From Cyanidioschyzon merolae (lineage: Eukaryota): a DNA stretch of 64,000 bases. Shown here piece by piece: positions 1-63,788 of this stretch. The notes below the pieces were generated by a model that saw nothing but the letters and a program-made list of their open reading frames with translations, did no database searches and was not told where the DNA came from. Location of the stretch: assembly GCA_000091205.1 (NCBI GenBank), contig AP006488.2, one strand, 5' to 3'. A program made the position numbers and the translations under genes. The first letter of the stretch is position 1. Each line of letters opens with the position of its first letter.

Positions 1-1967
1 GTTGCACGTGGAGCTTTTGACGTACCCCGTTCACGCTTAGATGCTTGTCCTATCTGGGCGCTCGCATCCGCGTCTTTTGCGTATGTACGAGGGCGAGCGC
101 TATGCGGAATGTCGTGCTCAGCAGCAAACGCAAGTCCAATATGCATGAGCAGGGTCACAGCCGAACGTCTCCGCGCAATTTGCTCTAAAACAATATCCAT
201 TAATCGGTAAAAGATAGCCATACCAGCTTCAGGGTTCGCCAACATCGCCGTGACTACCTCGTCAGCGAGCTCCGCTTCGATCTCTTGCACTACCGAGAGC
301 CCTGGGCCGGCGTACGCATCACCAGCAACATCGGAGCCGCCACCGACGCGAGGTTCGTAGATGCGGTTGCGCTGATCACCACTAGCACCACTACCGGGAT
401 CGCCAGCACCGCCCCTGAAGGCGTCGTCGTCGATGTCATCATCGCCGGTCGGTAGCGTCTGAGCTACCTCTACGAAAAGGTCAAGTCTTCGGTACACGTC
501 CGGCTCTGTCTCCTCGAGGAGCAACCACAAACGCTGAAGAATCTCGTAACGGTGCAGTGCTTCCCGCACGCTCTGTAGGTAGGATACCAACTCCTTGCAG
601 AATCGCTGAAGCGACGCTGCAGTGCCTATCGCAAACAGGAGACTCAAGGCGCGTCGCTGAATGGTCGGGTCCGCATCACGAAGGCACTCGAAAATCGTCT
701 CCTGGTGGGCGGCAACACTCGCCATGCTCCGCTCTGCAGCCTGTGGGAGCAGTTCTAGCGCAACAAGGCGCAAGTTCGGGTCACGGCTACGTAGAAAGTC
801 ACCGAGTATCTGAATCGCGAAAGCCAGGTTTCTCGAAGGCGAGCTCTCTAGCGCCAAAATCGTGCGAACACATTCGAGGACAACTCCATGAGAGCGTTCA
901 CTTGAGCGCGCAACATCGATAAGTGTTCGGTGAAGCTCCTCTGTCGCCGCCGAATCGTGCTGCCCCAGTCGTCGAAGCATCTTCAAGATGCTGCACTGGA
1001 GAAATGGATCGCAGACACCCTGGAATCCGTATTCTGGATTGAAGCCAGCTGTTGCGGTTTCTCGAAGCTGCTGCACCAACAATGCCTGATACTCGTTGGC
1101 TAGCATCCCATACAGGGCACCCGGCGCTACCGTCAGCAGCTCCTCGAGCAGCGCCAGACCGCTAATCAAGACACCGTGGTGGTGTGGCATCTTCAACAGC
1201 TCCAGGGCGGCAGCTCGAAACGAGTCCGCTGGTTCTGGAGTACGTCGACATAAACGGAGCGCCGCAAGCGCTGCTTTCTTCCGTATAAAAGGGTTCCGCG
1301 AGTGCAGGAGACGTTCCACGTCGGGAGCGAGGTCCTGACCGATCTCCGCTGAAGCCAGGTTCGCCACTACGTGTAACGCGAGAGCCACAATCTGGTGGTT
1401 GTCGCTCTGGAGATCCTGTTTCAAAACGTTCACTACGAGAAGAAGAACTTCAGATTGTTCGTCGAGCAGTACCTGCAGCGCCATGTACCCAATGCGTTTG
1501 TCTTTGAACTTGGGACTGGCACAGAGTTTGACGCACTCCATGATACCGAAATCGACACCATAGCCATTTAGGTAGAAAAACACGAGTTTTGCAACGTTGC
1601 GTCGGCGGAAGTAACGATCTTCTTGTCGAGATAGGTCCCGAATCTGAGCGAGCTGCTTTTTGACAAACTCGCGCTCCGCCGAGGCAGTCCTTTGCTTCCG
1701 AAACAGCTTTACAGTGTCCCGTAACGCATACACGATGTACTGCTTTTTGGCCGTAGAGATGGCGTTCTTAGCGCTCCGAACGGCCTTATCGAGCTCCTTC
1801 TGCATTTGATGAACCACTCCCAAGAGTCTTCGCTTCAAGTCCGGTCTGTGGTGCTGCGGAGCGCAGGTCGTGAAACGGCGATACGCAGCGGCAACCGGGT
1901 CGCGTTCAAGTGCGCATGAATGCGAAAGAGGACGGTGACGCCTCATCGATGGGCAGAGACAACCCAT
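1..1967 (-). CDS. AP complex large subunit (gamma/alpha/epsilon-type adaptin), N-terminal ~650 aa; the C-terminal part lies beyond the window start
   Basis: My own translation of the minus strand gives an uninterrupted frame from ~1967 to position 1, with no stop. It contains adaptin N-terminal signatures: NVAKLVFFYLNGYGVDFGIMECVKLCASPKFKDKRIGYMALQVLLDE, then DLQSDNHQIVALALHVVANLASAEIGQDLAPDVERLL...RNPFIRKKAALAALRL, HHGVLISGLALLEEL and DPFLQCSILKMLRRLG. The frame is absent from the ORF track because it runs off the edge. The + ORFs 557..922 and 1096..1338 are its antisense shadows. Start Met is ambiguous among complement ATGs at 1965-67, 1944-46 and 1803-05. Confidence 0.7.
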   Translation of the reverse strand, partial: MGCLCPSMRRHRPLSHSCALERDPVAAAYRRFTTCAPQHHRPDLKRRLLGVVHQMQKELDKAVRSAKNAISTAKKQYIVYALRDTVKLFRKQRTASAEREFVKKQLAQIRDLSRQEDRYFRRRNVAKLVFFYLNGYGVDFGIMECVKLCASPKFKDKRIGYMALQVLLDEQSEVLLLVVNVLKQDLQSDNHQIVALALHVVANLASAEIGQDLAPDVERLLHSRNPFIRKKAALAALRLCRRTPEPADSFRAAALELLKMPHHHGVLISGLALLEELLTVAPGALYGMLANEYQALLVQQLRETATAGFNPEYGFQGVCDPFLQCSILKMLRRLGQHDSAATEELHRTLIDVARSSERSHGVVLECVRTILALESSPSRNLAFAIQILGDFLRSRDPNLRLVALELLPQAAERSMASVAAHQETIFECLRDADPTIQRRALSLLFAIGTAASLQRFCKELVSYLQSVREALHRYEILQRLWLLLEETEPDVYRRLDLFVEVAQTLPTGDDDIDDDAFRGGAGDPGSGASGDQRNRIYEPRVGGGSDVAGDAYAGPGLSVVQEIEAELADEVVTAMLANPEAGMAIFYRLMDIVLEQIARRRSAVTLLMHIGLAFAAEHDIPHSARPRTYAKDADASAQIGQASKRERGTSKAPRA

Positions 1968-2455
1968 CCGATTCTCCTCAGCTCATGTTTCGCATGCTGC
2001 AAGTCAGGTTGGGTGAACAGCTTATGCGTCTAGCAGTTTGTTCCAGTTTGCAGCTTCGATGGTAATGCATGCTTCAAGAAGCTTGTAGAGCTTGCGACTT
2101 TCAGGGGTTGTCTTTCGAATACTGCAAGTCTGGCTGGACAAACCGTATAACCGTCGATCTGGTGTTCCAGTGCATGGTCTCGAATGTCATACGTGCTTCA
2201 AGGAGGCTAGAGTACGGTCGGGAAATTGGTTCAGGACACCTTTATCCTGCAAACTTTTGCGTACAAAGCGCACGCCATAGACGCGATTGCGCCGTATCAG
2301 GCGATGCTTGCTGGCGTATCCTGCTGGTAAACCTACAAGAGATATCGGCTGCAAACGAATCCTGGACCTGAGCAGACATCGAGAAACAGTCATTGCTTCC
2401 GCAGCTTGGGAGAGTACCAACGATGGTATTGGGCCACCTTAGACGGAAGTTTTCG

Positions 2456-2950
2456 CTATTTCAGGCCAGGGATCAGCAAAGCACTGTTCCTCATCGAATT
2501 CAGGGACGCATGTCGCTCGTACATAGCCTCGTAGCACGACGAGTAGCGTACGCGACGCCAGGCAAAGAGCCGGCAACATGCGCCTGCGCACTGGAACGAC
2601 TCGCGATGAAGCTCACCAACTCCATTGTGTGTGTGTGTGTGTGTACGCTCCGTTGCATGCTCCTGCACGGTTTCAACGAGGCCGACGATATCGACAGCGG
2701 AGAGCGCTGTCGCGAACCTGCCGGCAAGCTCCTTACCCGTCAAGTTACCCGCGATCCTCAAAAGCATTCTGTTTGCTTCCTCCTCGGTAAACAGCGGAGG
2801 CAGAGCAAGATGCTTCCAACCCAGCAGCTCTACATCGAAACTGTGACTGCGCTGACGAAGAACCCTCCATGACTCGTCGATAGCAATCCGGAGGCCAGAG
2901 TCCCGGGCTCTCCCGCCGGACGATAAACAGAAACAATTTTTGCGAAACAC
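2456..2950 (-). CDS. hypothetical small protein (164 aa), contains a (TH)n stretch from the (GT)n microsatellite
   Basis: ORF directly downstream of SmD1 on the same strand. The translation looks helical and protein-like (EEEANRMLLRIAGNLTGKELAGRFATALSAVDIVGLVETVQE), but I see no recognisable family. The opposite-strand ORF 2393..2872 looks like a shadow. Confidence 0.2.
   Translation of the reverse strand: MFRKNCFCLSSGGRARDSGLRIAIDESWRVLRQRSHSFDVELLGWKHLALPPLFTEEEANRMLLRIAGNLTGKELAGRFATALSAVDIVGLVETVQEHATERTHTHTHNGVGELHRESFQCAGACCRLFAWRRVRYSSCYEAMYERHASLNSMRNSALLIPGLK
2627..2644. repeat. (GT)9 microsatellite
   Basis: gtgtgtgtgtgtgtgtgt read directly from the sequence. Confidence 0.9.
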
Positions 2951-2960
2951 CCCGGCACAG

Positions 2961-3365
2961 TCAGTGTCTCTCTTTCTGATATCGTGTTCTGGGGCTGAAC
3001 TTGCGCGTTTCTTTCAAAGCGCTCTCCAGGTTCAATGACTCGGGCAGAATGATATATCGAACCGTAGATCCCCGGATTCGATATTCTCTCGCCTTTTGCT
3101 GAGGTTGATTCCGACGACTCATAGCTGAGGCATCCGGTTCACTGAATCGCTCGGTCCAAGGGGCGACGACCTGGGCCGCGTGCGTCTCCAGAGAAGCAGA
3201 GGGGAGCTCGGCTGGAGGTTTTCCAGTAACGGAAGCGTTCAGCAGGTAAACGTTCATCTCATTATCCACTCGCTGTACAGTTCCCGTGGCCTTCGTCCCA
3301 TCTTTCAGCTCAACAGTAACAGTGGCACCTCGAAGGCGAGTTAGGAAATAAAGCAAGGGGGTCAT
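2961..3365 (-). CDS. SMD1: small nuclear ribonucleoprotein Sm D1
   Basis: Sm fold: MTPLLYFLTRLRGATVTVELKDGTKATGTVQRVDNEMNVYLLNASV ... IRGSTVRYIILPESLNLESAL closely parallels the SmD1 consensus (FLMKL..ETVTIELKNGT..G.I..VD..MN.HLK...IRGNNIRYFILPDSL). The track start at 3416 is a TTG, so the first ATG (MTPLL) is used. There is a ~24-aa insertion relative to canonical SmD1; see findings. Confidence 0.65.
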   Translation of the reverse strand: MTPLLYFLTRLRGATVTVELKDGTKATGTVQRVDNEMNVYLLNASVTGKPPAELPSASLETHAAQVVAPWTERFSEPDASAMSRRNQPQQKAREYRIRGSTVRYIILPESLNLESALKETRKFSPRTRYQKERH

Positions 3366-17110: not shown

Positions 17111-19860
17111 TTCACCTTTTCCCGCTTGCTCCCCCAAACCTGGAAACCCTGAAGGATCTCCATCCCGCTATCCCCACAAACTGTTTCGAATGCCTCTGAG
17201 TTGTAAGCAGAGATCACCCGTTGCTCACCTAGTTGGGTATAAAGTTCAGTACAGATTTGTCTACGATGTTGAGATCTACCCTAGTCTGACGTACACGGAG
17301 CATGTTGAGTGATAGCTCGAGGAGACGACGGGCACTCTAATGCAGGCAGGGAGTCTGCATTGCCCCGGAGGACTCTGTTCACTTGCCCAAATCGCAGTGC
17401 AGATAGGAACACTGTTTCAACCATCCTTTGAATATGACCTCATTTGGCCCGAGGCCGAGACCAACACCATGCCCTCGGACGATTTGAAGCGATCGCCACG
17501 CTCGTTGCGGCATCTCTTCCAAACTCGCTACCTCTTCGATCTCCTGCGCCAGCAGCTCGTCACCCGCCTCCACTGACACTCGGAGACTACTCTCCATGAC
17601 TCCCATTTTTCTTCGCCAGTAAGGAGATCGGAAAACGCCCACAGAGTGCGCTCCACGCAGCGCTCGAGCTAGAACCGCATTTGGGTTTTCTAGTCAGTTT
17701 GATACTGTTTGACACCTGCTTTGTGGATGTACCACTCGCAGACTGGGCACAGCAATGCGTCAACAAGTTCGAGGAAGCGCGTGCGCGAAGCTCTGATCCG
17801 ACGATCAGACCATTTTTGCATCCTCTGTCCAGAGCGTCAGCCGCTGCATGAGGGTATTATGGAAGGATTCCAGTGGAATGTGCACAGCTGGCTGCCCTGC
17901 GTCCGGAACACCCACAAATGTTTGTTTCATGATGTGCATCAAAGCGAGAGAAGCTCGACGAGCCTCCCTCGGGCCGGGAGTTCGACTACTCCGTATGGCG
18001 TCCTGCCTCGCGCTCTATGGAAGATTTCATCAATGAATACATTGCATGTGGGAGACGATGACACCCGTCTCGGATAGTTCTTTCTGCTCCGATTGTTTAA
18101 CTTGCTGTTCCATCTCGTCCTCTTTTGAGCTGGACTTTGCTCTTCTTAGTCTCGTAGGTTCTTCTCCTTCTCATCGTTAGCCTTGCCCTGTACGTGGTAG
18201 CGTAGCACGCATGTGGTTGCTATAATCTGTAACCATTGTTCTTGCGGACTCTGGAGTTCTGGGTAGACACTGATGCTGAAAAAAAGCCTTTTCTCTCTAT
18301 GAATCTACTAGTTTATATCCCTTTTCATAGTGTTATCCGTTGCGAGTACGCCCACCGGCATATGCGCTCGTTTCTGCTCCTTCTCCTCGCACGAGAAGCG
18401 GAGCAGCGCAGCAATCTAGATGTGGTGATCGTCGAGAACAACTTGTATATACATTGCGGTTTCACGGATGCACACGACTTTAATGCTGTTCAGTGAGCGT
18501 CGAAATGGCGCTCGACAACTGGAAAGGCACCATCGACAGGATTGATCCAGGGGCACGGGCTGGCGCGCAGAGACGCTCAGAATCAGCCTCAGCTGCGCAC
18601 ACGATGGCCTATTGAGCGTGGCAGAACTGGGCGTTGTTGAAGATCAGGACAGTTATATGTTAGGAGCATTCGCCACGAACATTTCTTCGACCAAGGATGG
18701 GGTGTTTAAGTATCCTTTATTTTTCCGATATGTAGATAGCCATACGACAGCGTCGCCGCTATGGCTAAGGTTGTCGTCATTCTCGCCTGTCACGTCTTTC
18801 CGAACAGCGGCTTGCCTCACATTGAAGGACCGCCGAGTTCTACTATCCATCCCGAGTGAAGCCATATCGAGTGAGACGAACAGCCGCTTCTGCTTTCACA
18901 AGCGTTCGCATCTCAGAGCGTCATTGAAAGCATTTTGTTCAACGCGCGCTTGCCTTCTAGATAAGCGTGCAATGTACTCGCCCACTTTGTACACCGTTCG
19001 TGTCAACGGTAACAAATCTTGGAATCCTGCGACTTCTTGAGATATTCTTCTTCGAGAGCATATGAAATGCAATGGATTGATGCGTGGATAGTCGTACTAG
19101 TAGCGTAAAACAAGTTCTTCCCTGGGTACACGTCGTTCAGGAGAGGAACTACGCCAAGCTTGGCGCTTATCCACCTGCTGACCCTGGAGCAACTGATTTG
19201 TTCGAGTAGGACCTTTTACCCATGTTCTCGGTGACGGCATCATGTTTTTCTTCGACTATTCTCTATTGTAAAAAGGCAGACTCCTTTTGTTGTGCTACTG
19301 ACAGAAGAACAAACAAAAAAGCGTGCTGCTGCATCTGCTCCAGCGTGCAGTGCTCTGAATCGAACGCTGCTTTGGCGATACCTCTGAACCTCGTCATTCT
19401 GGACACAATACATGCAACGCGGCGGCATCGACAGTGCCCGAGCGTTTCATGCACAGAACTAGACAATCCAGCACGGATTGTTGCCCTAGGCAACGTCGAG
19501 CACATATGTCCATTATAAAACCAATATGTTCAGCATCAGGAGCGTGCTCCTAGCGGCGCCTCATTTCGCCATCGATGGTGGCGGAGACGCTCGCACGGGC
19601 AATGACGTGCGCGCTCACGTCGCAAAGCCAGCGCATCGCGCTGCGTGAGCGTTCAAAACGTGAAACTACTCCGGTGTGTGAACTGACTCGTGTGCAGGGC
19701 GTGATCCCACTTCGTCCTTGTTCATCAGTTGGTTGCAGTGACATCTTTGTGTTTGTGGCGAAGAATTTGGCAGATCTGCTCGGTCTCTGAACTTGAAACC
19801 TTGTACTGCAGGAACGCACCGAAGACACCGCTTGGTGACGCATTGTGCTGGTGGTTTTTC

Positions 19861-35292: not shown

Positions 35293-38200
35293 GGCAGCCT
35301 CTTGTGACTCGACGCACGACTGAGGCACAGGAATCTGCAGGGCAAGCTGCGAAAAGCGTCGACGCGATGCAGTAGGTGCCAATAAGCGTTACACCGTCGC
35401 GGTCGAGATGGCGTGCGCGGTTTCGCCCGGTCGGCTAGCGCGCGCTCCGGAACACCTACCAGGCTCGATACTGCTGCAGCCGGTGCTGTTGTCCTCTACA
35501 GAACGTATCGCCGGTCACAGTCCCGGAGTTCCTGGAGCCTTCTGCGCGGTCCAGCGCTCACCGTGCGGGTTACCAGCACCGGGGCACCGCCACAGCCCCA
35601 GGGCGTGTCAGGTTTCGTCGGCGTTGCCAAGGCGCCGCCGCACAGCCGCATCCGCGGCACGGGGCGCAGTGCGTCGACCATTCTGTGGAGAGTTCAGCGC
35701 ACTGCATGCTGTAGTACCGGGAAAAAGACGCATTTTTGTTTCCGAGTGTTCTTCTAACAGGCATTGGATTGAAGGAATTTATTTGTTAAAAAGGAGTTTG
35801 GTGGGCGAATAGGGTGTATGTTCTCGCATCTGAATGAGGAAGGAGCGGAAATGGACGTACAACTTCGTCATACTACAGTCACCAGGTGGATGCGCCATGC
35901 TTCTCGAAGCCCATACTCAGAGCGTCGTGCACCCGACATGGAACGTTCCGAAAGCTATATACACGCTTATCTTTACGAAATCTATTCCAGTCCAAATGCT
36001 CGCACCGTAATGCCACCAAAGATGCAATTCCATGTAAACTTTCGGTAACGTTTCCTCGAGCGGAGATGAAGAGACGCGGATGGATCAAGAAACAGGCACG
36101 CCTCAACAGGAGACCGCACCATTTCGAACAATACACAACAGATTCTGTATAGAAATGCGAATACTTTTCGTGGAAGCGACGGGCGTTCATCTCGCATGAT
36201 GACAAATTCATCGATGACCAATGCGAGACTTGTATAGACGTTGCCGTAGAGGGGCAAGCCGCTGTTTGTGAAGAAGAGTCAAGCGAGCATTCCGACAACG
36301 TCAGTTCTCGCGACGATTCAATACTGTATTCGCCCATGAATCGCAACACAGAGAGCAGCGCTCAGCACCTGATCCTCCGATGAAACACGCCTCGAGTTCC
36401 ATCTTTTCGTGTCCTTCTCCTGGGCAATATCTCTCAGTCCATCACTGATGTAGGTCGGGGGGCGGGGGCGCGGTTTGTAGCTGCTCTTCGTGCTAGCACA
36501 CGCTCGCGGGTTCCATCCGCTTAAAGACGTCGTATAGGATTTCAAACGCCATTTTGATCTACCGGAAGAACAGACGAGTCGTACGTAACCGTGTTACAGA
36601 AGTTCTTCGACAAATCACTCTTTGTGTTCACCAGAACCGAATCCATGCATTGATTCTCCGCTCATTGGCAGCTGAGAAGGGAAAGGTGCGCTCCGGTCTG
36701 GGAGCGGGCATGCGATGGCTAAGGCGACGAAAAAGCACTTGAGAAACAGTGCGTACATTCAAAGAGAAGACGAGTTTCAGGCACGTCGAGCGATCAGTGC
36801 GTCTGAGTGCCAAGAAAGAAAACGTATACAGCGTATCATGAAAAAATCCATGCTACCTAGCCGAGTAAGCGAAAAGGCAAAGATGTCGAAGCCGAAAGAG
36901 ATGCAACCACACGTCAAAGCAGAGAAATAGCTTCCCTAAAAGATGACGAGTTCCGACGGGAACGGAGCACCTTCCGATCGGAAAGATCATTGTTGGACCG
37001 CTGTCAACGCCTCACCAATAAATCATATCCATTGGGAGAATCCTTGAAGGCGTCAGGCACACGACGCCATTAGAGATCGCGTAGCTTCTTACGCGCACAA
37101 GTCTGGCCTATTTCGTCTTGTCTTGGTGCACCGCGCCACGCGACGCTTCGGTGGAGTTCCAGACACGGGCGGCAAGCTCTCGGCATTTCTCTGGATTTTT
37201 TTCGGATCAGACCTTCGTGCGAGAACACAACTTATGCTCCGGATAGAAGGCGCAACACGGCCTGTTCATAGGATTCCGGATGTACTCGCACGCTTCCCAG
37301 AATACCTTGACACATTACCGCGCCACCTCGGCGATCTGAGGATCGACAACGCAGATGCCAGAAAGTACGGAACTACATTCAACATACCAAATTAGGTTCA
37401 GTGTCGAGCGCTTCACGAAACACCTCCCATGCGCATTGTATCCTCACGTCACATACGCGATAAAATACGGATGGATGGACGGGATGCTTAGCGGGTCGAT
37501 GGAGGAAAATGACGAGCGATTGGCGGCAAGAGATCGAGGTGGCAGCGAGTTCGGAACTGATGTGCCAGCGATAGGGAGTATCGCTTCAGGTAATCCAAGC
37601 TCGTCGTGTTGCCGTCAGCCTCGGGTCGGCGGATTTCGTACCGAAAAGGATCGTTGAGACGCAACGCCTACCTTGCTTGCATCTACGGTTCCATGTTTCG
37701 CTGAGCAGATCTTCCCAGAGCAGACCAGAGCAGATTCCATCAGACCGTCGCCTCGAATCCAAGCGCCGTAGCCTCCGAAATCGCCAAGTGGATGTGCTCC
37801 CAGCACCTCAGATGGAAGCCCAGTCGATCACCCGAGACGCTTCTGCTCTGTACTGTATCGCATCTTCAGTGAGCTACAGCTGGTCTGTCTGCGCGCAGCT
37901 ATTCCGCATTCCACTTTAGAGGCTAGGAGCATTGCAGAGCTCGTTCAAGGCTCCTCGTGTACGGAGAAGGAATGGAACGAATTCTACAGTGCCGATGAAG
38001 CTCGCTGGAATACAAATCCGCATGTACTTGTGAGATCGAGGCCCAAGTCAAGCGATGCGACTCGGTCTCAGCCAAAGAAGACATATCAAGAGAGAAACAT
38101 CATGGTGGGCCCGGATCCCCAGGTCTGAGAATATCATGACGGTTGTCGTACCTCTGAATCGAGAGAACGTATCGAGGGATATGCAGGGAATGCAAATGAA

Positions 38201-39993
38201 GCTACTCAGCTTTTCCCGGGCTCGATTTCACCCAGGAATGGGCATGATGAATGCGAGAAGGCACACGAAAACTGGAAAGACGGCGTCAGGGACCAGACCC
38301 CGGTGCTCTGAGCACACTGTCCTGCGGACGAGGATGCTTTGTGTGCTGCATTCAGAGAGAACACGAGCGTCCAAATGGCGTATGTCGACGATCTCTGGCA
38401 GAAATACCTGCGGACGCACGGGAATGGCCAACGATTTTCGGCGTACAGGGGCAAGACGCGAGTATTCAGCGACTTGTTTCATGAACAGGAAAAGAAATAC
38501 GACGGATCGTTCGTCTCGTTGGGTGACGGTACCCTATGGCGCAAGACGTGCTGTGGCGCTCGTGGGCTGCACGCCTGCTCCTCTGACGAGAACGTAGAAC
38601 GAGTGCAGGAAACGATTCTGTACGACGCCTGTCGATGAGTTACGGCCAAAAGAGAAACGTCACGAGCACGAGTGCCCGTTGAAACAGCCAGAAACGAAGC
38701 GCTTGAAACAGAGCACAATGGGCGAGATGGGGTACGGCAGGCTGCCCGAAGTTCGAATGGCAAGGCAATGGAAGGTCAGCGGCCTGCGTTCATGTGCGCA
38801 TACTGGCAACCATGCGAGCCAGCTCCTTCTGCAACGAGACTTCGCCTCGATCAACATCTGGATATGTCTGGTGCCTCGTGCAAGTTCAGTAGCTTTACGT
38901 CGAGCAAAGTTTCCTGGTACTCGTTTCGTACTCGGTGCGTGCATTACGCTGAAACGCAGAAGAATTCCGATGACGTAGAAATACGCAGTCAAAAGGGAGG
39001 GAATCTTATTGCAGCTCGGAGCAACGCACTGGTATACTGCGGTTCAGCAATTCAGCGCCGCTGCACTGTGTATCGATACCCGGAAAACCATTCGCATTGC
39101 CATTAGGTAGGCGGTACTGGATTCCCGTGATTCTCGATTCGTAAGTATAATCAATGTTATTTGACCGAGTTGTTCTGGGAAACGAGCGACAACAGCTGCG
39201 ATCATTGCACAGCAGCTGGCAACCTGGTGTCTGTCTCACACACGGTCCGAACGTTGAACGCCTGGACACGTGCCGGTGCGTCACGCTTGCATTTCAACAA
39301 GTTCGTGGCGAATAGGCGTTTCCATTTCAACATTGTGGCAGCGACGCTGACCCCTGAACCAGAGGACAACGATAAAATCAGGGCATTGCAAAAAGAAGCG
39401 CACGCGGAAACCTGTAGCCACCTCCATAGCAATCCCTGTCGTTCAACGATACGAACGCTGTGTCGAGGACTGCTGGGGGCGCTGCCAAACCACTGGATCT
39501 TCTATTGCGAAGTTCGCACACTCTTGACAAAGATAAACCTCACGGAGCCGTCTGCCGCGCACAGACGACATTTGGCGGAGCGAAAACGCGTCTACTGTGG
39601 GAGGCTCATCAGTGGCTTTGCGAAAGCAACTAGCTTCGCTTCCCTGCGATACGATGCTGGCACTGTGAAGAGGCAAACCGCTTGAAACGGTAGCACCCGG
39701 ACACACAGATCGGGCTTGTAGCTGCGGAACAGCAGCGACTCGTTCGCTCTTCGATGCTTTTGATGGATGCGGAATCACAACATCTGAGGAGGTACCGAGT
39801 TCGTTGAAGAGATTGAGAGAAAGAGAGAAAACGTAGGAGAGCGCAAGGGAGCGGCGCAGTAGCTCGCGCGCTCTGATTGCCGACCTCGCCCTGGGCACGA
39901 TTTATGATTCTTGGATACGAAAGCCGCGGTTTCCGTTGCCTCCAAGGCAACAAACAGTTCCCTGTAATACTATAGACCCATGTAATTCAACTG

Positions 39994-46051: not shown

Positions 46052-48373
46052 TCAAGTGATACGGCCAAAGGCCGTCGCCGTGATGAACAGTCCGTCGCTC
46101 CAGTCCTCGCGAATCTTGCACAAGGGCCCATGACTCGTGCGCGTGCAGCGTTGCTCTTCACCAGACGCGTGTCCACGACTCATCACATAGGCCGATATAT
46201 CTGATCCGCAAGCAACTGCCGTCAGCATGTAGCCCTCGTCCCAGCGGTGATGAATGCTCTCACTGGGATACCCAAATTCGAGTTCGACCACCTGCTCCTT
46301 GAACGCTGTGCCTCGGCTCATGACGACGAGCCACTGCTCGGCAGAGGGCGGCCCCTGGACACAGAGGCTGGTGATGGCATAGCCGTTCGTCCACTTGTCG
46401 GCACACCACTTGGCCGGGAAGGTCGAGCTCACGATATAGCTCTGTTGCTTGTAGCGTTTGTTGCGATTCATGGTCGATGCGACAATCCCCCAACTTGTGT
46501 GATTCGCTGAGCAAGCAGTGATGTAGAAGCCCTCGTCCCATTTGCTGCGAATCCAATCTCGAGGCACTTCATTGCCGGGGCAATAGTGCATGGCTTGCTC
46601 CACCAGCACGGGATCTCTGGCGTTGAGGACGCTGGTCCACATCCCGCCGTCGAAGCACAACACGCTGATGCGCATGCCCTGAGCCCATTTGCGCTCCACC
46701 TCGCGCACCAGATTCTTGTACGAGGTATGACTCGTGTACACCTGGCTCGCTGGGGCACATGACGAGGCGTTGTTCGCTGAGGTGCTTATGATTACCCACT
46801 GATGTGTTTTCGTCGTTCGTGGTGCAATAATTTCAAAGCGTCCTCGTCGCATGCCCACGTCCTGGAGCGCCAAGGATAGCGCATGTTCAGCGAGCGCGCC
46901 ACCACGAATGCCCACGTCCGGCTCTGTGGAGCTCGCTCGCGAGACCGCTTGCGCCGTGTTCTGCAGCTCGGCCGCCGCACCCGGCGTTCGCGCTCGCTTT
47001 GGTGCCTGGGCAGATGCTTGCCCTGACATACCATTCCGCCGCTTACCACCGACCGTGCCCGGCACTGACGACTCCACAAGAAGAACTTCTGCTGCTCCTG
47101 CGCTGTTCTGCGAGACATCGCTGGCCAAGTTGATGATATTCGCACTCGGTGCGGCACTATCGACATCAACAGTCTCGGCGGCAGGGGTACGTGCCTGATA
47201 CGGGGGGACAAGCGGCACTCCCTCGGCCATGAGGCGCATTTGCTGATGAATCCAAACGATTCCCTGCTTGCAATCCAAAATCCGTGCCATGTACTCGTAG
47301 TCTGGCTGTTCAGCGAATTTCAGCTGCCGCACGTAGGCCAAAAAGTAGCGCAACTCATCCGGCACTGCTCGACAGATGTCATTAACTAGCATGCGTCCCT
47401 TGCTTTCGCAGACTTGCATATTCTTGTCGTCGCCGACAAAACCTTGCCACGGGAGCTGCCCTTTCAACAGATAAATCAGCATGTAAGCGAGTGATTCCAG
47501 ATCGTCTCTCCGAGACAGGTGGCGGCCGAGGTGCGCGTTCACCGACGCGTACCGCACCGTGCCGCTAAAGTGATCAATACGTTGACCGTATGGGACGTGC
47601 TTGCCCGTGGCGTCATCCTCGCGCCAACGGGTGGCGAGGCCCATGTCAATAATATAGAGAGGCACGTTGACGTCGATTTTCGCCGGCGTCACGCGAGCGT
47701 ACTTTGGGTCACTCACGGATGTCGTTCCATTGGCGCCCGTCCCGGAGGCATCGCGTGCGTCTATATTCACCTCTAGTAGCGCCAAGGGGTCCACGCACGA
47801 CCCCCCCGTATTCTGGCGACTTGACGTCTGGTTTTTCGGTTCGCGGTATTCGAGGAGGAAATTCTCGGGCTTCACATCCCCGTGAACATAACCGATGTCG
47901 TGGACTCGCTTGATCAACGCCAAACACTTGAGCGCGATCTGAGACACTTGTGGCCAGGTAAATCGTCGCGAAACTCGAGATTCAAGGGCCTTCTGGAGCG
48001 TAGGTCCCAACAGCTGCATAACACAGACAAAATATCGCCCGACATGTCCAGTGTAGTAGACAGTGGGAGCGCCGAGTCCCTGCATCCGCATCAGAACCTC
48101 CCACTCGCGATACGCAATCGTTCGGGAGCGATACTCCAGTTTCACCGCTACTGGCTCGCCTGTAAGCGCGTTGCGGCCCTTGTAAACGTCGCCAAAGTGG
48201 CCAGAGCCAAGAAAAACGTCCTTTTCCACGATGAAACCTTTGCCGCCAGTGCAAGGGCACGACTGCCCCACCACCGTTGGAACTGGATCCTTCGGCTCCG
48301 ACGCACTCGCTGCGGGTGTCGCACCGACCGCTGGCTCGACAGCGGCTGTGCGCCCTCCCACTGGGCCCCGCAT
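46052..48373 (-). CDS. casein kinase I (CK1)-family Ser/Thr protein kinase with long C-terminal extension carrying ~5 tandem ~48-aa W-x-x-G-[YF]-x-[IL]-T repeats
   Basis: Kinase domain: FLGSGHFGDVYKG...VAVKLE, HDIGYVHGDVKPENFLL, a large insert, then IDMGLATRW...GTVRYASVNAHLG and SRRDDLESLAYMLIYLLKGQLPW. C-terminal repeats: WAQGMRISVL..., WDEGFYITAC..., WTNGYAITSL..., WDEGYMLTAV..., WSDGLFITATAFG. Confidence 0.85.
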   Translation of the reverse strand: MRGPVGGRTAAVEPAVGATPAASASEPKDPVPTVVGQSCPCTGGKGFIVEKDVFLGSGHFGDVYKGRNALTGEPVAVKLEYRSRTIAYREWEVLMRMQGLGAPTVYYTGHVGRYFVCVMQLLGPTLQKALESRVSRRFTWPQVSQIALKCLALIKRVHDIGYVHGDVKPENFLLEYREPKNQTSSRQNTGGSCVDPLALLEVNIDARDASGTGANGTTSVSDPKYARVTPAKIDVNVPLYIIDMGLATRWREDDATGKHVPYGQRIDHFSGTVRYASVNAHLGRHLSRRDDLESLAYMLIYLLKGQLPWQGFVGDDKNMQVCESKGRMLVNDICRAVPDELRYFLAYVRQLKFAEQPDYEYMARILDCKQGIVWIHQQMRLMAEGVPLVPPYQARTPAAETVDVDSAAPSANIINLASDVSQNSAGAAEVLLVESSVPGTVGGKRRNGMSGQASAQAPKRARTPGAAAELQNTAQAVSRASSTEPDVGIRGGALAEHALSLALQDVGMRRGRFEIIAPRTTKTHQWVIISTSANNASSCAPASQVYTSHTSYKNLVREVERKWAQGMRISVLCFDGGMWTSVLNARDPVLVEQAMHYCPGNEVPRDWIRSKWDEGFYITACSANHTSWGIVASTMNRNKRYKQQSYIVSSTFPAKWCADKWTNGYAITSLCVQGPPSAEQWLVVMSRGTAFKEQVVELEFGYPSESIHHRWDEGYMLTAVACGSDISAYVMSRGHASGEEQRCTRTSHGPLCKIREDWSDGLFITATAFGRIT

Positions 48374-49439
48374 GGTGCCCGCTCACCCCTGGTACACAGC
48401 CACAGACACGCTTGCTTCAGCAGCTTCAAAAACCTCCTGGTATCCAAACACGCTCCGCTTCAACCCGACTCACGGCTTCTCTGAGCAAAATCTGTCGAGC
48501 GAACAATAGACAACTCAACCAAAACCACCACAGAGTCGCAGCCCAGAGTCTTTTGTAGACGTGACAAGTCGTCCGTGCGAACTGGCGCTGCCACTACCGC
48601 TGCGTCGCGCGAGGGTTTCCACTACAACCGACTCGTGCAACCTCGAAACAGCCTAAAAACGGAAACTGACCTCTATCGTTGGATACTGAGTATTCCTGCT
48701 TTCACGTCAAGTACTATAGCACCAAACAGGAACCTACTCGAAACGTGTATACCCGCTCATATGGTCCATGCGTTCAGGGTAGTCACGCGCTGAGCGTCTA
48801 TCGAACGCGCGCTGTCTCGAGGCGCTGTTCATACATCCCCGCGTGACGCGACCCTGCGGGCGCTGATGCGCAAGCGCGCGCTGCAATGGACATCGCTGCA
48901 TCAAGATCGATGGTGCAATCCTGATTCGATTGCGATGACAAAACGTTTCCATGGAGCAGGGATCCCTGGTTTCGGGAAGGATGGGTGGTGGCGTTCGGGA
49001 AAGCGTCCATCATGATGTTACCTCCAGGTTCCTTTTGGATATACTGGCCGTTTCGTATGGTCTATCGTTTGCCGAGTACTTGATGTGAGCGCTCGCCTCG
49101 GGGCTTGTATCGCTGGAGCAGATATATCATGGGGATAGAACGGCTTTGGCACGCCATTGAGGGCGTCGGATCGAGGAACGCTTCACCTGATACGTAGTCG
49201 GAGTATATGATCAATCTGCGAGCCTGCAAGCTGCGCTGGCAGACGGACTGCCTGCGGCAGTTTGACGCGATATACTAGGAGTCCACTGCGACCAGATCGA
49301 CGCCCAGATGGAGCCTAACTGCCCCTGATCCCAGAATGAATTGCGTTTTGCGGACGCATTGTTCAGGTCTCGCCACAGCACCTGCCACTGGAGGAAGCAT
49401 GAAGCACGAGCTTGGTAGATTCGTCCGTCTCGCGGGACC

Positions 49440-52140
49440 TTACGCCTAGAAGGTAAACTTTCGAAGATACGGAAACCTTTCCCCTTTGTAACGTTTATCG
49501 TAGATGGGGATAGAAATACATAAATATTTGCAGGTGAATCGTGAGTCTATGTTCCTTATTCTAAATAACGCGCTCGGTACGCGCATCCCAAATTTGGTAG
49601 TACGAAATACGACGCGAATGTCGCTGTTGAAGGGAAACGCGATCGAGACAACACGTTTTCTTTTTTGGGAGCATTCGATCTCGTACTCGCAGCGTGCACT
49701 GTTGGTGAGGGTCTTGTCCCATGGATGACAACGGCATTGCACGGCTAGATCTAGTGTGTTGTTCTACTGTAAAAGTCGGATTTCCTTTGAGGCCATAGCA
49801 AAGTCTAGTTTCCCAGTTCAATTGTGTTTCAAACCTCAAGTAAGAATATTCCATTGAATTTTCGCAGCATATAACAAATGCGTTCGAAGAGGGCTCTTTT
49901 TCAAAAGAAACTAAGAAAAAGGAAAGTTGTGAAAAAGCAACTGGACGATCCTTGAAGTCCAGGATCCTCGGCTGCCAGAAAAAAAAACGAAAAACAGTGC
50001 CGAGTCCAGAAGAAAAGGAAGAGAAGAGGACCGAAAGGGGGAGGCCCTGCGTCGAAGACGGCCAGAAAGACGACTGTACGACGAGACGGTGGTGAAAGCC
50101 TTTCTTCTTGGACATATCAAGGGGTCGTACAAGGAAAGGTTGCGAGACGCTATCGAAAAACGTGTCGATTCGTACACCAAGAGCACCATAAAGACGTCGT
50201 CAGGACTGATGCATTTGGTGAGAGAGATGTATCGCGACGTGACGCACATGGAAACGGTCGAGATTCCAGACGAGTTGTTCGACCAGACCTTTATTCGGCA
50301 CCTGATGCTTGGCACAGGGAAACGCGGAGGGGAAATGAGTTCGTGCATGCTCTCCACGGAAAACATCCCTTTTATAGCTTCGAGGGTACTCGATACAAGG
50401 CTGACCAGGATATTTACACATACGGGGCAATGAAGTACCTCACGAATCTGAAGAACCATTTGACAATGAACCTCGAACGTTTCATGATACGCTCCGTGTT
50501 TGCACTCTACCCGGGTCTGTCTCGCAATGGAAAATGGGCGATTATCAATGGCATCACGAAAGATCGTAAGCATGAAGATGAGACGGAGATCGTTGACAAG
50601 AAGTCGTCAAACGAGAGCACGAATGAAGCTTCTGTAATCCGTGCGCCTAGTAAAGAGTACCGCGCAGACCTGGGGCTGGCGAATCCAGCAGAAAAGATGT
50701 CAGAGTTGAAAAAACATATGGAAAAATACAATCGCCTCATCCTGCGGTATTTCTTGTTTCTGGACCGAGAGCTCGAATGCAAGGCAGATGTGAAGCTAAG
50801 TGAGGAAAACAATGAAGAGTCGGAGAGACGGACGGCTTTCCTAATGGGGAAGCGCGTCAACGTGGTTCCAATGTGCAACATCAAGTCACATTTTGTGACT
50901 ACCGACTCCAGAGTCCTTCATGGCATCATCAGGAAGATCAGTCTTGAGTTCAATGTTAGCAGGGAGGAGTTCACCGGCGAGAACCGGGAGCCGTACTGGA
51001 AGAATATCTTCGATTTCAAACGTCTCAAAGTGAGCAAGCAAAAGGTATTCACTTGGATGATCGAAACCGATGGAGTAGCCATGGACGTACACTATCGGCG
51101 CTTGAAGGCAGATCGTCCAGTTCCGCCCTCTGCTGCGCCCTCGACGAGCCATGCAGAAAAGAAGGAGGCGGATCCTGCGATGCAGGAGGTGCAGGATAAC
51201 GACTTTGTCGTGGGTGCGGACCCTGGGAATACGAATATCATAACCATCGCAGCACCCAAGCCTGGGGAAGATGATACTGACGGTGACTTACGTCAGAGAG
51301 ACAAGCGTCTTTTGAGGTTCTCGACAGCGAGATACTATCGAGAATCCGGTATAATGAATGCAAGGAAGAAAATTGATACGTGGAATGCAGGAATGAAGGA
51401 TCACCTGGAAGCTTTGAGTGAGGTGACGAGCCGAGGAGCGGGCTTACAAGCTTTTCGGAAACTCATGGAAATACGCGTTGCTCATTGGGAGGCGCTGTGG
51501 GAGGAGTATACAAATCCCCGGTGGGCTCGTCTGCGAATGAATCTATATTGTGGGAAGCAGCGGGCGTTCGCGGACTTTTTCAATCAGTTGAGTGCCCTCA
51601 AAGAGGATGAAACTCAGAGGCTGGAAGTAGCTTATGGGGCAGGGCGCTGGAAGAACCGAAAAAAGGGACTACGCCAGCTCCAACGACAACAACGTACAAA
51701 GAGTGTGCACGGCGTTTCGCTACGATACCTGTAGATGAGTTTCGAACGTCCTACACACACCATGAACTGGGGTGTACACTTCAAAGGGTCGAGATGGAAA
51801 AGTGCCAGCGGAGCGCTGAAGACTTAAAAAGCACGGACCACTGACAGAAGAGCATATGGAATAGAGGGCAAAAGTTCGTGGACTACTCGCATTCGTAAGT
51901 ACAACCATTTGCAAAAAACGTATGGAATTTCTGAACCGGGACTTGAACGCCGCGATCAATATCAGGAGACGTGCGGTGATAGAACAGAGACCTCCACAGT
52001 CGACAAGAGCGAAAAGCGTTGGCTGGCGTGATCATTTCGTTCATGAGAAAAATCAACGGCGCGCTCGAGCGACTCTCCAGCCACGCCCGAGATATTCTCG
52101 GTCCGTCGTTACGCCCGAGATATTCTCGGTCCGTAGCTCC
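49440..52140 (+). mobile_element. Fanzor/TnpB-like (eukaryotic OMEGA-type RuvC nuclease) element, most intact copy (copy C), in a lower-GC island
   Basis: Composition changes abruptly to AT-richer at ~49440. The nuclease ORF runs 50089-~52000. The 3' end holds a ggctgg...ccagcc stem, the 10-bp palindrome cgctcgagcg (52061-52070), a 24-bp unit acgcccgagatattctcggtccgt duplicated at 52083-52106 and 52111-52134, and (acga)4. Boundaries are approximate. Confidence 0.5.
50089..52000 (+). CDS. Fanzor/TnpB-like RuvC nuclease ORF (RuvC-I, RuvC-II/TS..C zinc-finger and RuvC-III motifs present); reading frame interrupted at ~50340-50430, ~51720 and ~51840 (frameshifts or short introns), so possibly a pseudogene
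   Basis: Main frame 50343..51734 contains [19 protein letters not shown] (RuvC-I, the GIDLGI..lA pattern) and [10 protein letters not shown]. The adjacent frame at ~51709-51840 reads [21 protein letters not shown]...C (the TnpB vd.yTSq.C zinc-finger lead-in with E). The frame at 51922 reads [19 protein letters not shown] (RuvC-III, D-RD.NAA.NI). An N-terminal piece at 50089..50433 lies in a third frame. Track starts 50089 and 50343 are GTG. Confidence 0.55.
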
Positions 52141-52321
52141 GCCAACTCAAACGAACGAACGAACGAAAGCTCTTCTATCGGGTGCGAAAATGCGCTCCGA
52201 CTCAGTGCGTCTTGTCAGTACAACTTTTCCGAGTCTAGTAGATATTCACAGGAATATTCATGACGCAGTTACAGTGCAAGCTGAGCTCTTGAGAGCTGCT
52301 TCGCCACGCGCAACTCCAGTG

Positions 52322-54154
52322 ATGGCTGGTGCGCGCTCCCCAATCGCTAAAGCCTCACCGCGTCCTCGCACGGTCGTGTACTTTGGCACGTACACGCGTG
52401 TGCTACACCACAGTCGTGGGACCGGAAAAGGTGTGTTCGGGTTTTGGTTGGACAACGACACAGGCTACCTGGCTCCTCTTAAAACTGATTCCCCGGAGGA
52501 GGCTGACGAGTCTGGACTCGTCGTCCGTGCTGACGGGCTACTGTGTCCAGCGTATTTCTGTCGCGATCGTGGCCCTTCAGGCGAGTACCTCTGGGCAGTC
52601 AATGAAACGTCCAAGTTCGACTATGCTCGCCCGGATATTTTCGGGTCGGTGACCCTGTTCCGCTGGCTGCGGCGCGAGGGCGGCCTGCTAGAGCGGCTCG
52701 GAGAGTTTGCGACCGCGGGACACGGCGCTTGCCATCCGTGGACGGATCACCTTGGACGGTTTCTTCTTATAGCAAACTACTGGAGTGGATCTGTTGTGGT
52801 CTTCCATATCGAGCGTGAGGCAGTGGAGCGTGAGCATACGACGAGTCCACGTCTGCACCTGGTGCAGCATGTGCAGTTTATATCCCCAGTCGATGCAGTC
52901 GACGAGGAAACGAAACCGTGCGCAGCGTCGCTCCTAGGTCTCACTGAAGCGATGCAACAGGCACAGAAAGCAAAATCAAGTCTCTTGGGTTTCCGCCGCG
53001 ATCGGCAGGATGGACCACACTCACACCAGATCGTGGTTGACCCCACCGAGCGCTTCCTCTATGTCCCAGATCTAGGAACGGACCGCATCTATCAATTTAT
53101 CCTCCGGTTTGATGAGGTAGCTTCCGAGCTGGCACACGGAAAAGACCAAGAGTCTCTGCGGTGCGTACCGCACGCTGCGTTATCGGGAAGCGATGCGCAG
53201 TTGTGTACAGAGGCACAGGATGCTGTCGCTGCGCATGTACGGGGCACATCGCCTGGTCCTGATGAGCAGAACGGTCGCCCCATTCAAGCGCAGCAGCAGC
53301 GTTTCATCACTCCGGCTGGTGTGGTGTCTGACTACCCGTTCCAAGCGCCCCAGGGTGGCGTACTGTACCAGACCGAGTTCGCACGAGCCACCGGGACGGC
53401 GTGCTGTCTCCTGCCGCATCCCTCTGCGGCGTTCGTTTCCGTGCCGCCGAGCGGTGCGGGACCTCGCCACATGTTGTTGCATCCATCTGGCCGTTGGGCG
53501 CTCGTTCTCTGTGAACTGAACGCGACCCTGCTGTGCTACGCCTGGGACGGACCAACGCCAGTGGAGACGGTGCTTGGGCATCAGACTGCCAGCGGGCTGC
53601 TGTCGAGCACGCCTGCGTCCATGTTGGACTTGCTCCCGGCCCACTATCGTCAGAGGTACTCGCCGGAAATACTGCACCAGTACAACATCTCGTCGGCGTT
53701 GCGTCTGCATCCATTGAGAACGGATCGGCTCTATGCGAGCAACCGTGGACACGACTCAGTTGCGGTTATCGAGTTCTCCGAACAGAATGGCTGTATGCGG
53801 ATTCTGCAGTGGGTTCCGTCTGGTGGACGCACCCCACGTGATATCGCCCTGGATCCCCGCGCAGAGTTCCTCTACGTGGCTAACCAAGATTCAGATCGAG
53901 TAGCGGTGTTCAAGCTGGATCCCGATACTGGCTTGGTTTTGTCGACTGGCCACCATGCGCCATGTCATGAACAAGCTGCAGATGCTGGTCAGAGTGCCGA
54001 CTTGGGCGCTGCACCAAATCCCGAACAAGATGGCATGTCCGCGGACTCAATGGATGATCTAACGCTTGCGGGCTGCGAACAACGGTGCACACCTTACCAA
54101 ACGCTCTCGATCCGCGAGCCTTGCACGGTATTCGTCGAGGAGGTACCCCTCTAG
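52322..54154 (+). CDS. lactonase, 7-bladed beta-propeller family (6-phosphogluconolactonase / muconate lactonising-enzyme-like)
   Basis: TVVYFGTYT...GKGVFGFWLD near the N-terminus, with repeated propeller blades: HPSGRWALVLCELNATLLCYAWD, LHPLRTDRLYASNRGHDSVAVIEF and PRDIALDPRAEFLYVANQDSDRVAVFKLDPDTGLV. The open frame extends upstream to 52019 (TTG) across the Fanzor 3' end. I chose the ATG at 52322 from family N-terminus position; ATG 52190 is an alternative. Confidence 0.55.
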   Translation: MAGARSPIAKASPRPRTVVYFGTYTRVLHHSRGTGKGVFGFWLDNDTGYLAPLKTDSPEEADESGLVVRADGLLCPAYFCRDRGPSGEYLWAVNETSKFDYARPDIFGSVTLFRWLRREGGLLERLGEFATAGHGACHPWTDHLGRFLLIANYWSGSVVVFHIEREAVEREHTTSPRLHLVQHVQFISPVDAVDEETKPCAASLLGLTEAMQQAQKAKSSLLGFRRDRQDGPHSHQIVVDPTERFLYVPDLGTDRIYQFILRFDEVASELAHGKDQESLRCVPHAALSGSDAQLCTEAQDAVAAHVRGTSPGPDEQNGRPIQAQQQRFITPAGVVSDYPFQAPQGGVLYQTEFARATGTACCLLPHPSAAFVSVPPSGAGPRHMLLHPSGRWALVLCELNATLLCYAWDGPTPVETVLGHQTASGLLSSTPASMLDLLPAHYRQRYSPEILHQYNISSALRLHPLRTDRLYASNRGHDSVAVIEFSEQNGCMRILQWVPSGGRTPRDIALDPRAEFLYVANQDSDRVAVFKLDPDTGLVLSTGHHAPCHEQAADAGQSADLGAAPNPEQDGMSADSMDDLTLAGCEQRCTPYQTLSIREPCTVFVEEVPL

Positions 54155-63009: not shown

Positions 63010-63480
63010 CTCGAATACAAGTAAAGAGAGATCGGGCGCAGAGCTGATCACCGAAGAGACCTGCACATACAAACAGGCGCATTTGAATACGTCTTTCATC
63101 GGTAGGTGCACGGTGCACTGTTCGGGAGCGCACACGCTGGAAGCAAGCTCGCTTCTCGAAGGCGTGTAGCGCGATCTCGGAATACCGCATATCGATACGC
63201 ATGTTTGCGTGGAGGAGGACGCGTGCGCGAACCCAGACGCCGAAGCGAACCTTGGGGTCTGTTCGCAGTGGCGGCGAAACTAGTCGTGGCGGGGAATGGT
63301 CTCCGACTGCTTCATGTTACGCTCACGTATCCCCTGCTTGTAGAACGCCGGTCTACTGTTTCTCTAGCCCTGTTGTCAGCAGTCGAAGATGACGGATGCT
63401 CGTGTTCATTCCCCTGCTTTCGCTGCATACAGCCGTTGTCGACGCATATGGTGCTCAGGCGGACGTTGCTATGTACGCAT

Positions 63481-63788
63481 CGCTTGCCATGTTCTTCGTG
63501 TTTGTATATAAGTCAGTGCGTTTGTTGCAGCGTTGACACCTGCATGTGGTCAGGTGTCGCTTGCCATGTTCTTCGTGTTTGTATATAAGTCAGTGCGTTT
63601 GTTGCAGCGTTGACACCTGCATGTGGTCAGGTGTCGCTTGCCATGTTCTTCGTGTTTGTATATAAGTCAGTGCGTTTGTTGCAGCGTTGACACCTGCATG
63701 TGGTCAGGTGTCGCTTGCCATGTTCTTCGTGTTTGTATATAAGTCAGTGCGTTTGTTGCAGCGGTGACACCTGCATGTGGTCAGGTGT
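63481..63788. repeat. 77-bp tandem repeat x4 (cgcttgccatgttcttcgtgtttgtatataagtcagtgcgtttgttgcagcgttgacacctgcatgtggtcaggtgt), each unit carrying TGTATATAAG
   Basis: Units at 63481, 63558, 63635 and 63712 are near-identical (unit 4 has cgg for cgt). A partial degenerate copy sits upstream. The array lies 470 bp downstream of the clathrin stop. Confidence 0.9.

Follow-up and report, generated by a model that had tools for sequence, protein, structure and literature searches.

We report that positions 48933 to 52021 of the window (the whole stretch of DNA analysed, 64 kb) are a copy, truncated at its 3' end and inactivated, of CMe-1A, a Fanzor1 element published from Cyanidioschyzon merolae; we put the probability of this reading at approximately 95%. 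The CMe-1A family is already known and has been in print since 2013 (Bao & Jurka 2013, Mobile DNA 4:12; PMC3627910), where the element is given as 3169 bp long with approximately 150 copies, each ≈80% identical to the consensus, and where CMe-1 is among the founding Fanzor1 sequences. According to the same source CMe-1A has no terminal inverted repeats (TIRs) and encodes a 734-amino-acid Fanzor1 protein in one exon, its 5' 635 bp correspond to TE-N2_CMe, and its target-site duplications could not be determined (PMC3627910). The copy in the window is one among these ≈150 decayed copies, and its main parts are as follows.

48933-52021, + strand: CMe-1A copy, 3'-truncated, corresponding to consensus positions 1-3000 of 3169
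48933-49644, + strand: 5' non-coding part, beginning CGATGACAAAACG, aligned to consensus positions 1-725
49652-49750, + strand: 99-bp insertion relative to the CMe-1A consensus (pairwise alignment), between the 5' part and the pre-ORF region
49929-52021, + strand: Fanzor1 pseudogene, matching codons 1-698 of the CMe-1 ORF (734 codons)

Comparison with the published consensus (blastn and MAFFT) gave 78.9% identity between consensus positions 1-725 and 48933-49644, and 86.3% between consensus positions 734-2992 and 49752-52013; the copy as a whole, with 2973 bases aligned, is 85.4% identical at the DNA level. Other copies, present in metagenome contigs, cover the window from ≈48930 up to ≈52020. 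The first-pass annotation had placed the element at 49440-52140; the repeated element instead extends from 48933 to ≈52021 and starts ≈500 bp further to the left. At this left end the window reads CGATGACAAAACGTTTCCATGG from 48933, matching the family left terminus CGATGACAAAACGTTT... of the published consensus, and upstream of 48933 similarity is lost in non-orthologous copies. The segment 48933-49644 is found alone or joined to truncated copies at loci L012, L019, L020 and L047, and is also dispersed separately as TE-N2_CMe, while sequence similar to the 99-bp insertion is present in just one other fetched copy (L048). When the left and right ends of the copies were aligned neither terminal inverted repeats nor target-site duplications were evident. 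The left flanks of the copies are often T-rich, which may represent a target preference or element sequence. The GC content is 0.487 in 49440-52140 compared with 0.575 and 0.567 in the 3-kb flanks, as had been noted for a mobile-element insertion richer in AT than its surroundings.

The right end of the element is missing. Specifically, consensus positions 3001-3169 (169 bp), which comprise the final 36 codons with the stop codon and a 59-nt 3' tail, are absent: the pairwise alignment to the consensus has a 169-bp deletion at the 3' end of the copy, the match to an nhmmer profile built from 3' ends of the family halts at 52021 (profile position 105 of 277), and no element remnant was found further downstream of 52021. 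Other copies continue in conserved sequence for ≈170 nt past the point that corresponds to 52021, and several of them reach the consensus end at 3169. The copy was therefore filed as a truncated member; assignment to the family does not depend on the right terminus, which marks complete copies. The earlier description as "near-complete" is misleading: ≈95% of the length is present, but the ATG and the last 169 bp are lost, and the ORF is interrupted by two nonsense codons and five frameshifts. The sequence that follows the truncation point is specific to this locus and has the following features.

52022-52189, no strand assigned: locus-specific spacer, not part of the element, from the truncation point to the ATG (52190) of the lactonase-family gene
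52021-52026 pairing with 52077-52082: stem ggctgg / ccagcc, from the sequence
52062-52071: palindrome cgctcgagcg, from the sequence
52083-52106 and 52111-52134: 24-nt unit present twice with a 4-nt spacer, i.e. a 28-bp tandem duplication (52083-52110)

The stem, the 10-bp palindrome and the 24-bp duplication are all located where they were first described, and the region 52014-52140 folds better than its shuffles (z = -2.68, 1 of 200 shuffles being as good). The suggestion that 52020-52140 is an omega-RNA scaffold or the right end of the element has to be given up, since this is unique flanking sequence: 52022-52140 is found neither in the published consensus nor in any of the other fetched copies (≈40 loci), and the hairpin unit, which was searched for in the rest of the window and in 52 loci, is present at this locus only. 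The 28-bp duplication is polymorphic and absent in L001, an orthologous contig from an independent metagenome assembly of a different sample (99.1% identical over 7.8 kb). A search of the whole window against Rfam gave no match.

The copy, an old insertion, lies in a 3.8-kb spacer between divergently oriented protein kinase and lactonase-family genes. Protein P0067 (654 amino acids, 98% identical, 100% coverage) begins at the lactonase-family ATG at 52190, and the metagenome relatives of the lactonase-family protein show 98% and 61% identity. The neighbouring genes are eukaryotic and intron-free, and encode clathrin heavy chain, APC3, the protein kinase and an N-terminally extended DXP synthase. 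To judge by the transposon family and the gene content, the host is probably C. merolae or a very close relative, although for the lactonase-family protein the protein collection gave no match named as C. merolae. The position between divergent genes, the structured spacer adjoining the lactonase-family ATG and the presence of the insertion in two strains could be taken to mean that the truncated element, or the spacer 52022-52189, has been co-opted as promoter or 5'-UTR for one of the two genes; the 28-bp indel between strains within that spacer argues against tight constraint, and we regard co-option as very improbable.

As to the protein that the inactivated CMe-1A copy once encoded, a 19-residue RuvC-I motif is located at 51195-51251, a 15-residue motif at 51731-51775 and a 13-residue RuvC-III motif at 51934-51972, and the three occupy three different reading frames. 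The profile alignment puts them on the catalytic residues of SpuFz1 (residue numbering from PMC10432273), and their original interpretation as the RuvC catalytic D, E and D is thereby upheld.

51219-51221, + strand: RuvC-I Asp codon (D of GADPG), aligned with SpuFz1 D383
51737-51739, + strand: RuvC-II Glu codon (E of VDEFRT), aligned with SpuFz1 E541
51940-51942, + strand: RuvC-III Asp codon (D of NRDLNAA), aligned with SpuFz1 D606

A profile built from 15 relatives matched the PDB sequences of SpuFz1 (8gkh, E = 3e-6) and GtFz1 (9cer, E = 0.002). A search with the conceptual translation gave 57 homologues, the lowest E-values being 0, and judged by these sequence comparisons the protein match is not due to chance. 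In the Pfam scan of the conceptual translation the Cas12f1-like_TNB model scored 16.6 bits (E = 0.009), under its 26.3-bit cut-off, and eight relatives, intact ones included, gave nothing or weak scores, while a single-sequence phmmer search of the PDB gave no match. The precomputed annotation of the relatives is PF26935 (DUF8286), marked as weak at the sole locus for which its strength is stated. The Fanzor1 structures were matched by the family profile and the Pfam TnpB models stayed below threshold; only the profile match and the comparison with published sequences establish the family, direct Pfam and single-sequence PDB searches being weak or empty. Together with the match to the CMe-1A consensus, the profile match to the Fanzor1 structures bears out the view of the element as a eukaryotic TnpB-like Fanzor1.

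Compared with residues 20-699 of CMe-1, the frame-corrected translation shows 78% identity (E = 0). The ORF is not intact: the ATG is changed to GTG, there are two in-frame stop codons and five frameshifting indels of 1-2 bp each, and the final 36 codons are gone. The lesions, compared with the consensus and with L001, are listed below.

49929-49931, + strand: lost start codon, GTG for consensus ATG (codon projection; shared with L001)
49953-49955, + strand: nonsense TGA for consensus GGA (window-specific; L001 has GGA)
49979-49980, + strand: +2 frameshift in an A run (alignment; shared with L001)
≈50025, + strand: -1 frameshift (alignment; shared with L001)
50317, + strand: -1 frameshift, switching from ORF 50089-50433 to ORF 50343-51734 (shared with L001)
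51658-51659, + strand: +2 frameshift in an A run (window-specific, not in L001)
51827, + strand: -1 frameshift (shared with L001, where the gene call P0002 also ends ...STDH)
51862-51864, + strand: nonsense TAG for consensus AGG, in MERRAK (codon projection; shared with L001)

The frame breaks that had been placed at ≈50340-50430, ≈51720 and ≈51840 are real, but the true indels are situated slightly upstream of these ORF ends. Decay, assembly error and short introns had been offered as their causes; given the lesions shared with L001 assembly error cannot be the main one, and introns are rejected. A potentially active, near-complete Fanzor, in which the breaks are short introns and an omega-RNA lies at 52020-52140, would be in keeping with the retention of all three catalytic codons, with a GTAAGT at 51894 as candidate donor and with the folding of 52014-52140. 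However, the consensus ORF is single-exon, the breaks are all 1-2-bp indels and there is no intron-sized insert within the ORF; the GTAAGT itself codes for Val-Ser in LAFVSTT and lines up with a coding GTGAGT in the consensus. Given also the lost ATG, the two in-frame stops, the missing 169 bp and a putative omega-RNA stretch that no other copy contains and whose duplication is polymorphic, we attach hardly any credence to an active gene. Equally hard to credit is a gene intact in the organism and broken by assembly or sequencing errors, e.g. in homopolymers: the indels at 49979 and 51658 are in A runs, and the TGA at 49953 and the +2 at 51658 are not in L001 and, being in or near homopolymers, could be sequencing errors, but the GTG, the TAG at 51862, the 3' truncation and four of the indels (≈49979, 50025, 50317 and 51827) are all present in L001 as well, whose longest called product (P0002) likewise ends ...STDH, and correcting both window-only lesions still leaves a pseudogene. 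Because most of the lesions recur in this independent contig, they are in the main not assembly errors.

The dN/dS relative to the consensus is 0.40, which fits a protein formerly under selection and subsequently decaying. The CMe-1A copy in the window is a fossil that functions neither as nuclease nor as mobile element, since its ORF is broken and the 3' 169 bp with the expected omega-RNA scaffold are deleted.

The CMe-1A consensus resembles the window copy in the left terminus, in the TE-N2_CMe-like 5' non-coding part and in the single Fanzor1 ORF that follows it, and the divergence of the copy agrees with the ≈80% identity given for the ≈150 family copies. The copy differs from the consensus in the 99-bp insertion, the lost ATG, the two nonsense codons, the five frameshifts and the missing positions 3001-3169. 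SpuFz1 and GtFz1 are Fanzor1 nucleases whose biochemistry and structure have been characterised (Saito et al. 2023, PMC10432273). The family profile aligns with them over the WED/RuvC half (profile positions 289-645), and like CMe-1A they belong to eukaryotic, single-ORF elements, although the relation of CMe-1 to them is distant and seen by profile alone. Inverted repeats of 30 nt are present in SpuFz1 elements but not in CMe-1A (PMC3627910); activity and omega-RNA of CMe-1 are putative, by analogy, and the window copy is dead. The bacterial TnpB/OMEGA systems (IS200/IS605, IS607) likewise have a split RuvC and a C-terminal TNB or zinc-ribbon-like region, and their elements encode the guide RNA at the 3' end. 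In contrast to bacterial TnpB, CMe-1 has a eukaryotic host, no TnpA nearby, no match to the Pfam TnpB models at their thresholds and a much longer protein (734 amino acids) with a basic N-terminal region.

An intact CMe-1A would encode a 734-amino-acid, single-exon Fanzor1 protein, a TnpB-like RuvC nuclease with a basic N-terminal region, and, by analogy with characterised Fanzor1 systems, also an omega-RNA. Its scaffold would occupy the final ≈60-170 nt of the intact element with the guide read from the flank past the right end; both this location and RNA-guided activity in intact family members are our inference. The metagenome contigs include at least one open copy of nearly full length (P0001, 752 amino acids). 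For the 3' ends of 17 family copies, mostly neutrally decaying, RNAalifold gave a weak structure (-11.5 kcal/mol) and no covariation, a null result that is uninformative because most copies decay neutrally, and the consensus 3' 274 nt folded with z = -2.5, which cannot show an omega-RNA. We consider it possible, though tentatively and as the less probable alternative, that some Cyanidioschyzon members of the family are still active Fanzor1 nucleases, their omega-RNA lying in the last ≈60-170 nt; the dN/dS of 0.40, the open copy P0001 and the conserved 3' tail fit such activity.

Further relics are present in the window. At least one much older Fanzor1 lineage, not in the 2013 catalogue, is represented at 36973-38957 and 18164-16140. 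Short derivatives that appear to keep the element ends and have lost most of the ORF are located on the minus strand at 4199-3734 and 13329-12780, and a TE-N2-like piece at 16024-15847 is a locus separate from the main copy. The short derivatives resemble TE-N2_CMe (Bao & Jurka 2013) and the ORF-less "ghost" Spu-1 elements (Saito et al. 2023), and are loci separate from the main CMe-1A copy. All lower-GC patches in the 64-kb window are Fanzor relics, belonging to at least two lineages.

For annotation, the locus is cleanly described as a Fanzor1 pseudogene, with no gene, no introns and no omega-RNA. It also calls for caution, as structure beside a TnpB-like ORF is no evidence for a guide RNA unless it is common to other copies of the element. 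To judge by the relics in the 64-kb window, the influence of Fanzor1 elements on intergenic DNA in this compact genome has been strong. Finally, should the family indeed include active nucleases, a genetically tractable, intron-poor alga with a TIR-less and transposase-less Fanzor1 family would be well suited for studying how such elements move.

The element lying between the divergently oriented protein kinase and lactonase-family genes belongs to CMe-1A, the Fanzor1 transposon family of C. merolae, which has been described since 2013. Fanzor was defined by Bao & Jurka (2013; PMC3627910), who reported for CMe-1A a consensus of 3169 bp, approximately 150 copies each approximately 80% identical to it, and a one-exon Fanzor1 of 734 aa; CMe-1A has no transposase and no TIRs, clear TSDs could not be determined, and its 5' 635 bp also occurs as an independent repeat, TE-N2_CMe. 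Neither TIRs nor clear TSDs were found in the copy ends aligned here. The long intron-free ORFs in the window include those listed below, together with the gene downstream of the element.

Genes in the window
46052-48373, minus strand: protein kinase
52190-54154, plus strand: lactonase-family gene (Pfam Lactonase)
Clathrin heavy chain, 1726 aa
APC3/Cdc27-like TPR protein
PEMT-domain protein
DXP synthase with an N-terminal extension of approximately 127 aa

The intron-free ORFs indicate an intron-poor, plastid-bearing eukaryote of approximately 54% GC and, taken with the transposon family, suggest that the host is Cyanidioschyzon merolae or a very close relative. The lactonase-family product starts at ATG 52190 and is 98% identical, at 100% query coverage, to a collection protein of 654 aa (P0067). 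Downstream of the clathrin heavy-chain ORF there is a tandem array (63403-63787) of 4-5 units with a 77-nt period, in which the final units are 99-100% identical.

The window was compared with the published CMe-1A consensus and its protein, CMe-1 (Bao & Jurka 2013, PMC3627910). Consensus positions 1-725 aligned with 48933-49644 (78.9% identity) and positions 734-2992 with 49752-52013 (86.3%), while global alignment gave 85.4% identity over 2973 bases and CMe-1 residues 20-699 were 78% identical to the frame-corrected window translation. From 48933 the window starts CGATGACAAAACG, an exact match to the start of the published consensus. Because approximately 40 copies on metagenome contigs cover the window from ~48930 to ~52020 and nowhere past, we place the element at 48933-52021, i.e. 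its start is approximately 500 bp further left and its end approximately 120 bp earlier than the 49440-52140 of the first-pass annotation. The lower GC content noted there was confirmed, with 0.487 for 49440-52140, below the values of its 3-kb flanks (0.575 and 0.567) and of the whole window (0.542). Relative to the consensus, a 99-bp insertion (49652-49750) separates the TE-N2-like module from the region upstream of the ORF and is common to only one of the fetched copies (L048).

The TnpB/Fanzor-like identity and the order of the three RuvC motifs were both upheld. The motifs are present at 51195-51251, 51731-51775 and 51934-51972, one in each forward frame. With the frame-corrected translation as query, 57 homologues were found, some of them 70-99% identical; at 28-39% identity they include intact proteins 600-730 aa long. 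Direct search gave a faint Pfam match (Cas12f1-like_TNB, E=0.009) and a single-sequence phmmer search of the PDB gave none; a profile built from 15 relatives and run against PDB sequences matched the characterised Fanzor1 nucleases SpuFz1 (8gkh; E=3e-6) and GtFz1 (9cer; E=0.002). In the profile alignment the Asp of GADPG, the Glu of VDEFRT and the Asp of NRDxNAA fall on SpuFz1 D383, E541 and D606, which coordinate both active-site magnesium ions (Saito et al. 2023, PMC10432273), and on this alignment the three motifs are therefore assigned to the catalytic positions of a Fanzor1; the outcome that the first-pass annotation gave as refuting did not occur. Directly upstream of the RuvC-I Asp, family members differ in how many copies they carry of a 75-bp (25-aa) unit (51142-51219): the window copy and the published consensus have one, L002/P0001 has three, and the metagenome loci L017 and L052 have approximately five; the unit was also noted at L019 and L020.

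The label "near-complete" first proposed was not supported, since scoring against the consensus ORF (positions 906-3110) revealed a lost ATG, two nonsense codons, five frameshifts and a missing 3' end.

Lesions in the window copy (plus strand)
49929: start codon loss, GTG replaces ATG
49953: nonsense codon TGA (GGA in L001)
~49979: +2 frameshift
~50025: -1 frameshift
~50317: -1 frameshift
~51658: +2 frameshift (differs from L001)
~51827: -1 frameshift
51862: nonsense codon TAG
~51908: in-frame 3-bp deletion
After 52021: 3' truncation, consensus 3001-3169 absent (last 36 codons, stop codon and 59-nt 3' tail)

That the ORF is split over three frames by decay was borne out by L001, an independently assembled metagenome contig with the same locus including the host genes (99.1% identical over 7.8 kb). 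Apart from point changes, the only differences between L001 and the window are the TGA at 49953, the +2 frameshift at 51658 and a 28-bp indel. Since the remaining lesions and the truncation are common to both assemblies, they are judged to be real and older than the split of the two strains. Short introns, with GTAAGT at 51894 as a donor, had been offered as another explanation of the breaks; this reading was rejected because the consensus is a single exon, no break is intron-sized relative to it, and GTAAGT corresponds to coding GTGAGT (Val-Ser of LALVSTT). The dN/dS value of 0.40 against the consensus fits a lineage formerly under protein-level selection, as argued for the family by Bao & Jurka (PMC3627910), followed by neutral decay.

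An omega-RNA scaffold and right end had been suggested at 52020-52140. The structures exist as described: ggctgg (52021-52026) pairs with ccagcc (52077-52082), the palindrome cgctcgagcg is at 52062-52071, a 24-nt unit occurs twice (52083-52106 and 52111-52134), and 52014-52140 folds somewhat better than shuffled sequences (z = -2.68). However, they are locus-specific. Other copies run approximately 170 conserved nt past the point matching 52013-52021 (ORF end plus conserved tail), several of them to the published consensus end at 3169, and the match of the window to an nhmmer profile of the family 3' region breaks off at 52021 (position 105 of the 277 in the profile), with no remnant downstream. 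No counterpart of 52022-52189 was found in the other fetched copies, and neither the rest of the window nor 51 further loci contain its hairpin unit. What had been described as a 24-bp duplication plus spacer is a tandem duplication of 28 bp (52083-52110, including the hairpin CCGAGA-TAT-TCTCGG) that is polymorphic, being absent from L001. The suggestion was thus rejected, and on these comparisons we regard 52022-52189 as plain spacer ahead of the lactonase-family gene. Co-option of the relic or the spacer for a regulatory role is improbable and finds no support here; the window copy is a fossil, able to make neither protein nor RNA.

All lower-GC patches in the composition profile of the window (4-5, 12-13, 16-19, 36-37 and 49-52 kb) coincide with a Fanzor-derived relic, so that in this genome a dip in GC serves well as a marker of such elements. 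Two Fanzor1-like pseudogenes full of stop codons (36973-38957, plus strand; 18164-16140, minus strand) are only approximately 25-32% identical to CMe-1-type proteins and nearer to a clade of intact proteins found in other metagenomes (P0048-P0051); the regions upstream of them share an inverted repeat (18753-18816 / 36253-36316). Since only one Fanzor1 family is catalogued for C. merolae (Bao & Jurka, PMC3627910), these may represent an older, uncatalogued lineage. Two short internally deleted CMe-1A derivatives (4199-3734 and 13329-12780, both minus strand) join an ORF-start piece (consensus ~786-969) to the 3' end (~2900-3083), account for the direct repeat D2, and recall the "ghost" elements without an ORF in S. 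punctatus. A short way past the 3' end of the pseudogene at 18164-16140 is an isolated TE-N2_CMe-like 5' module (16024-15847, minus strand; consensus 84-257).

By analogy, the omega-RNA scaffold of CMe-1A would sit at consensus ~3040-3169, a region lost from the window copy. The 3' 274 nt of the consensus folds at z = -2.5, and RNAalifold of 17 family copies gave no covariation; this is uninformative, since pairing is not maintained in copies that are decaying. Intact distant relatives of 613-700 aa (loci L006/L007, L014 and L016) have hairpin-rich tails of 130-170 nt past the stop codon, ending in a common ...GGC(A/G)GAG(AG)TATA beyond which homologous contigs diverge; these tails are candidates for the omega-RNA scaffold and right end of those families. 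An intact CMe-1A would most likely act like other Fanzor1 elements, as an RNA-guided RuvC nuclease with an omega-RNA read out of its right end, a mode of action established for SpuFz1 as well as GtFz1.
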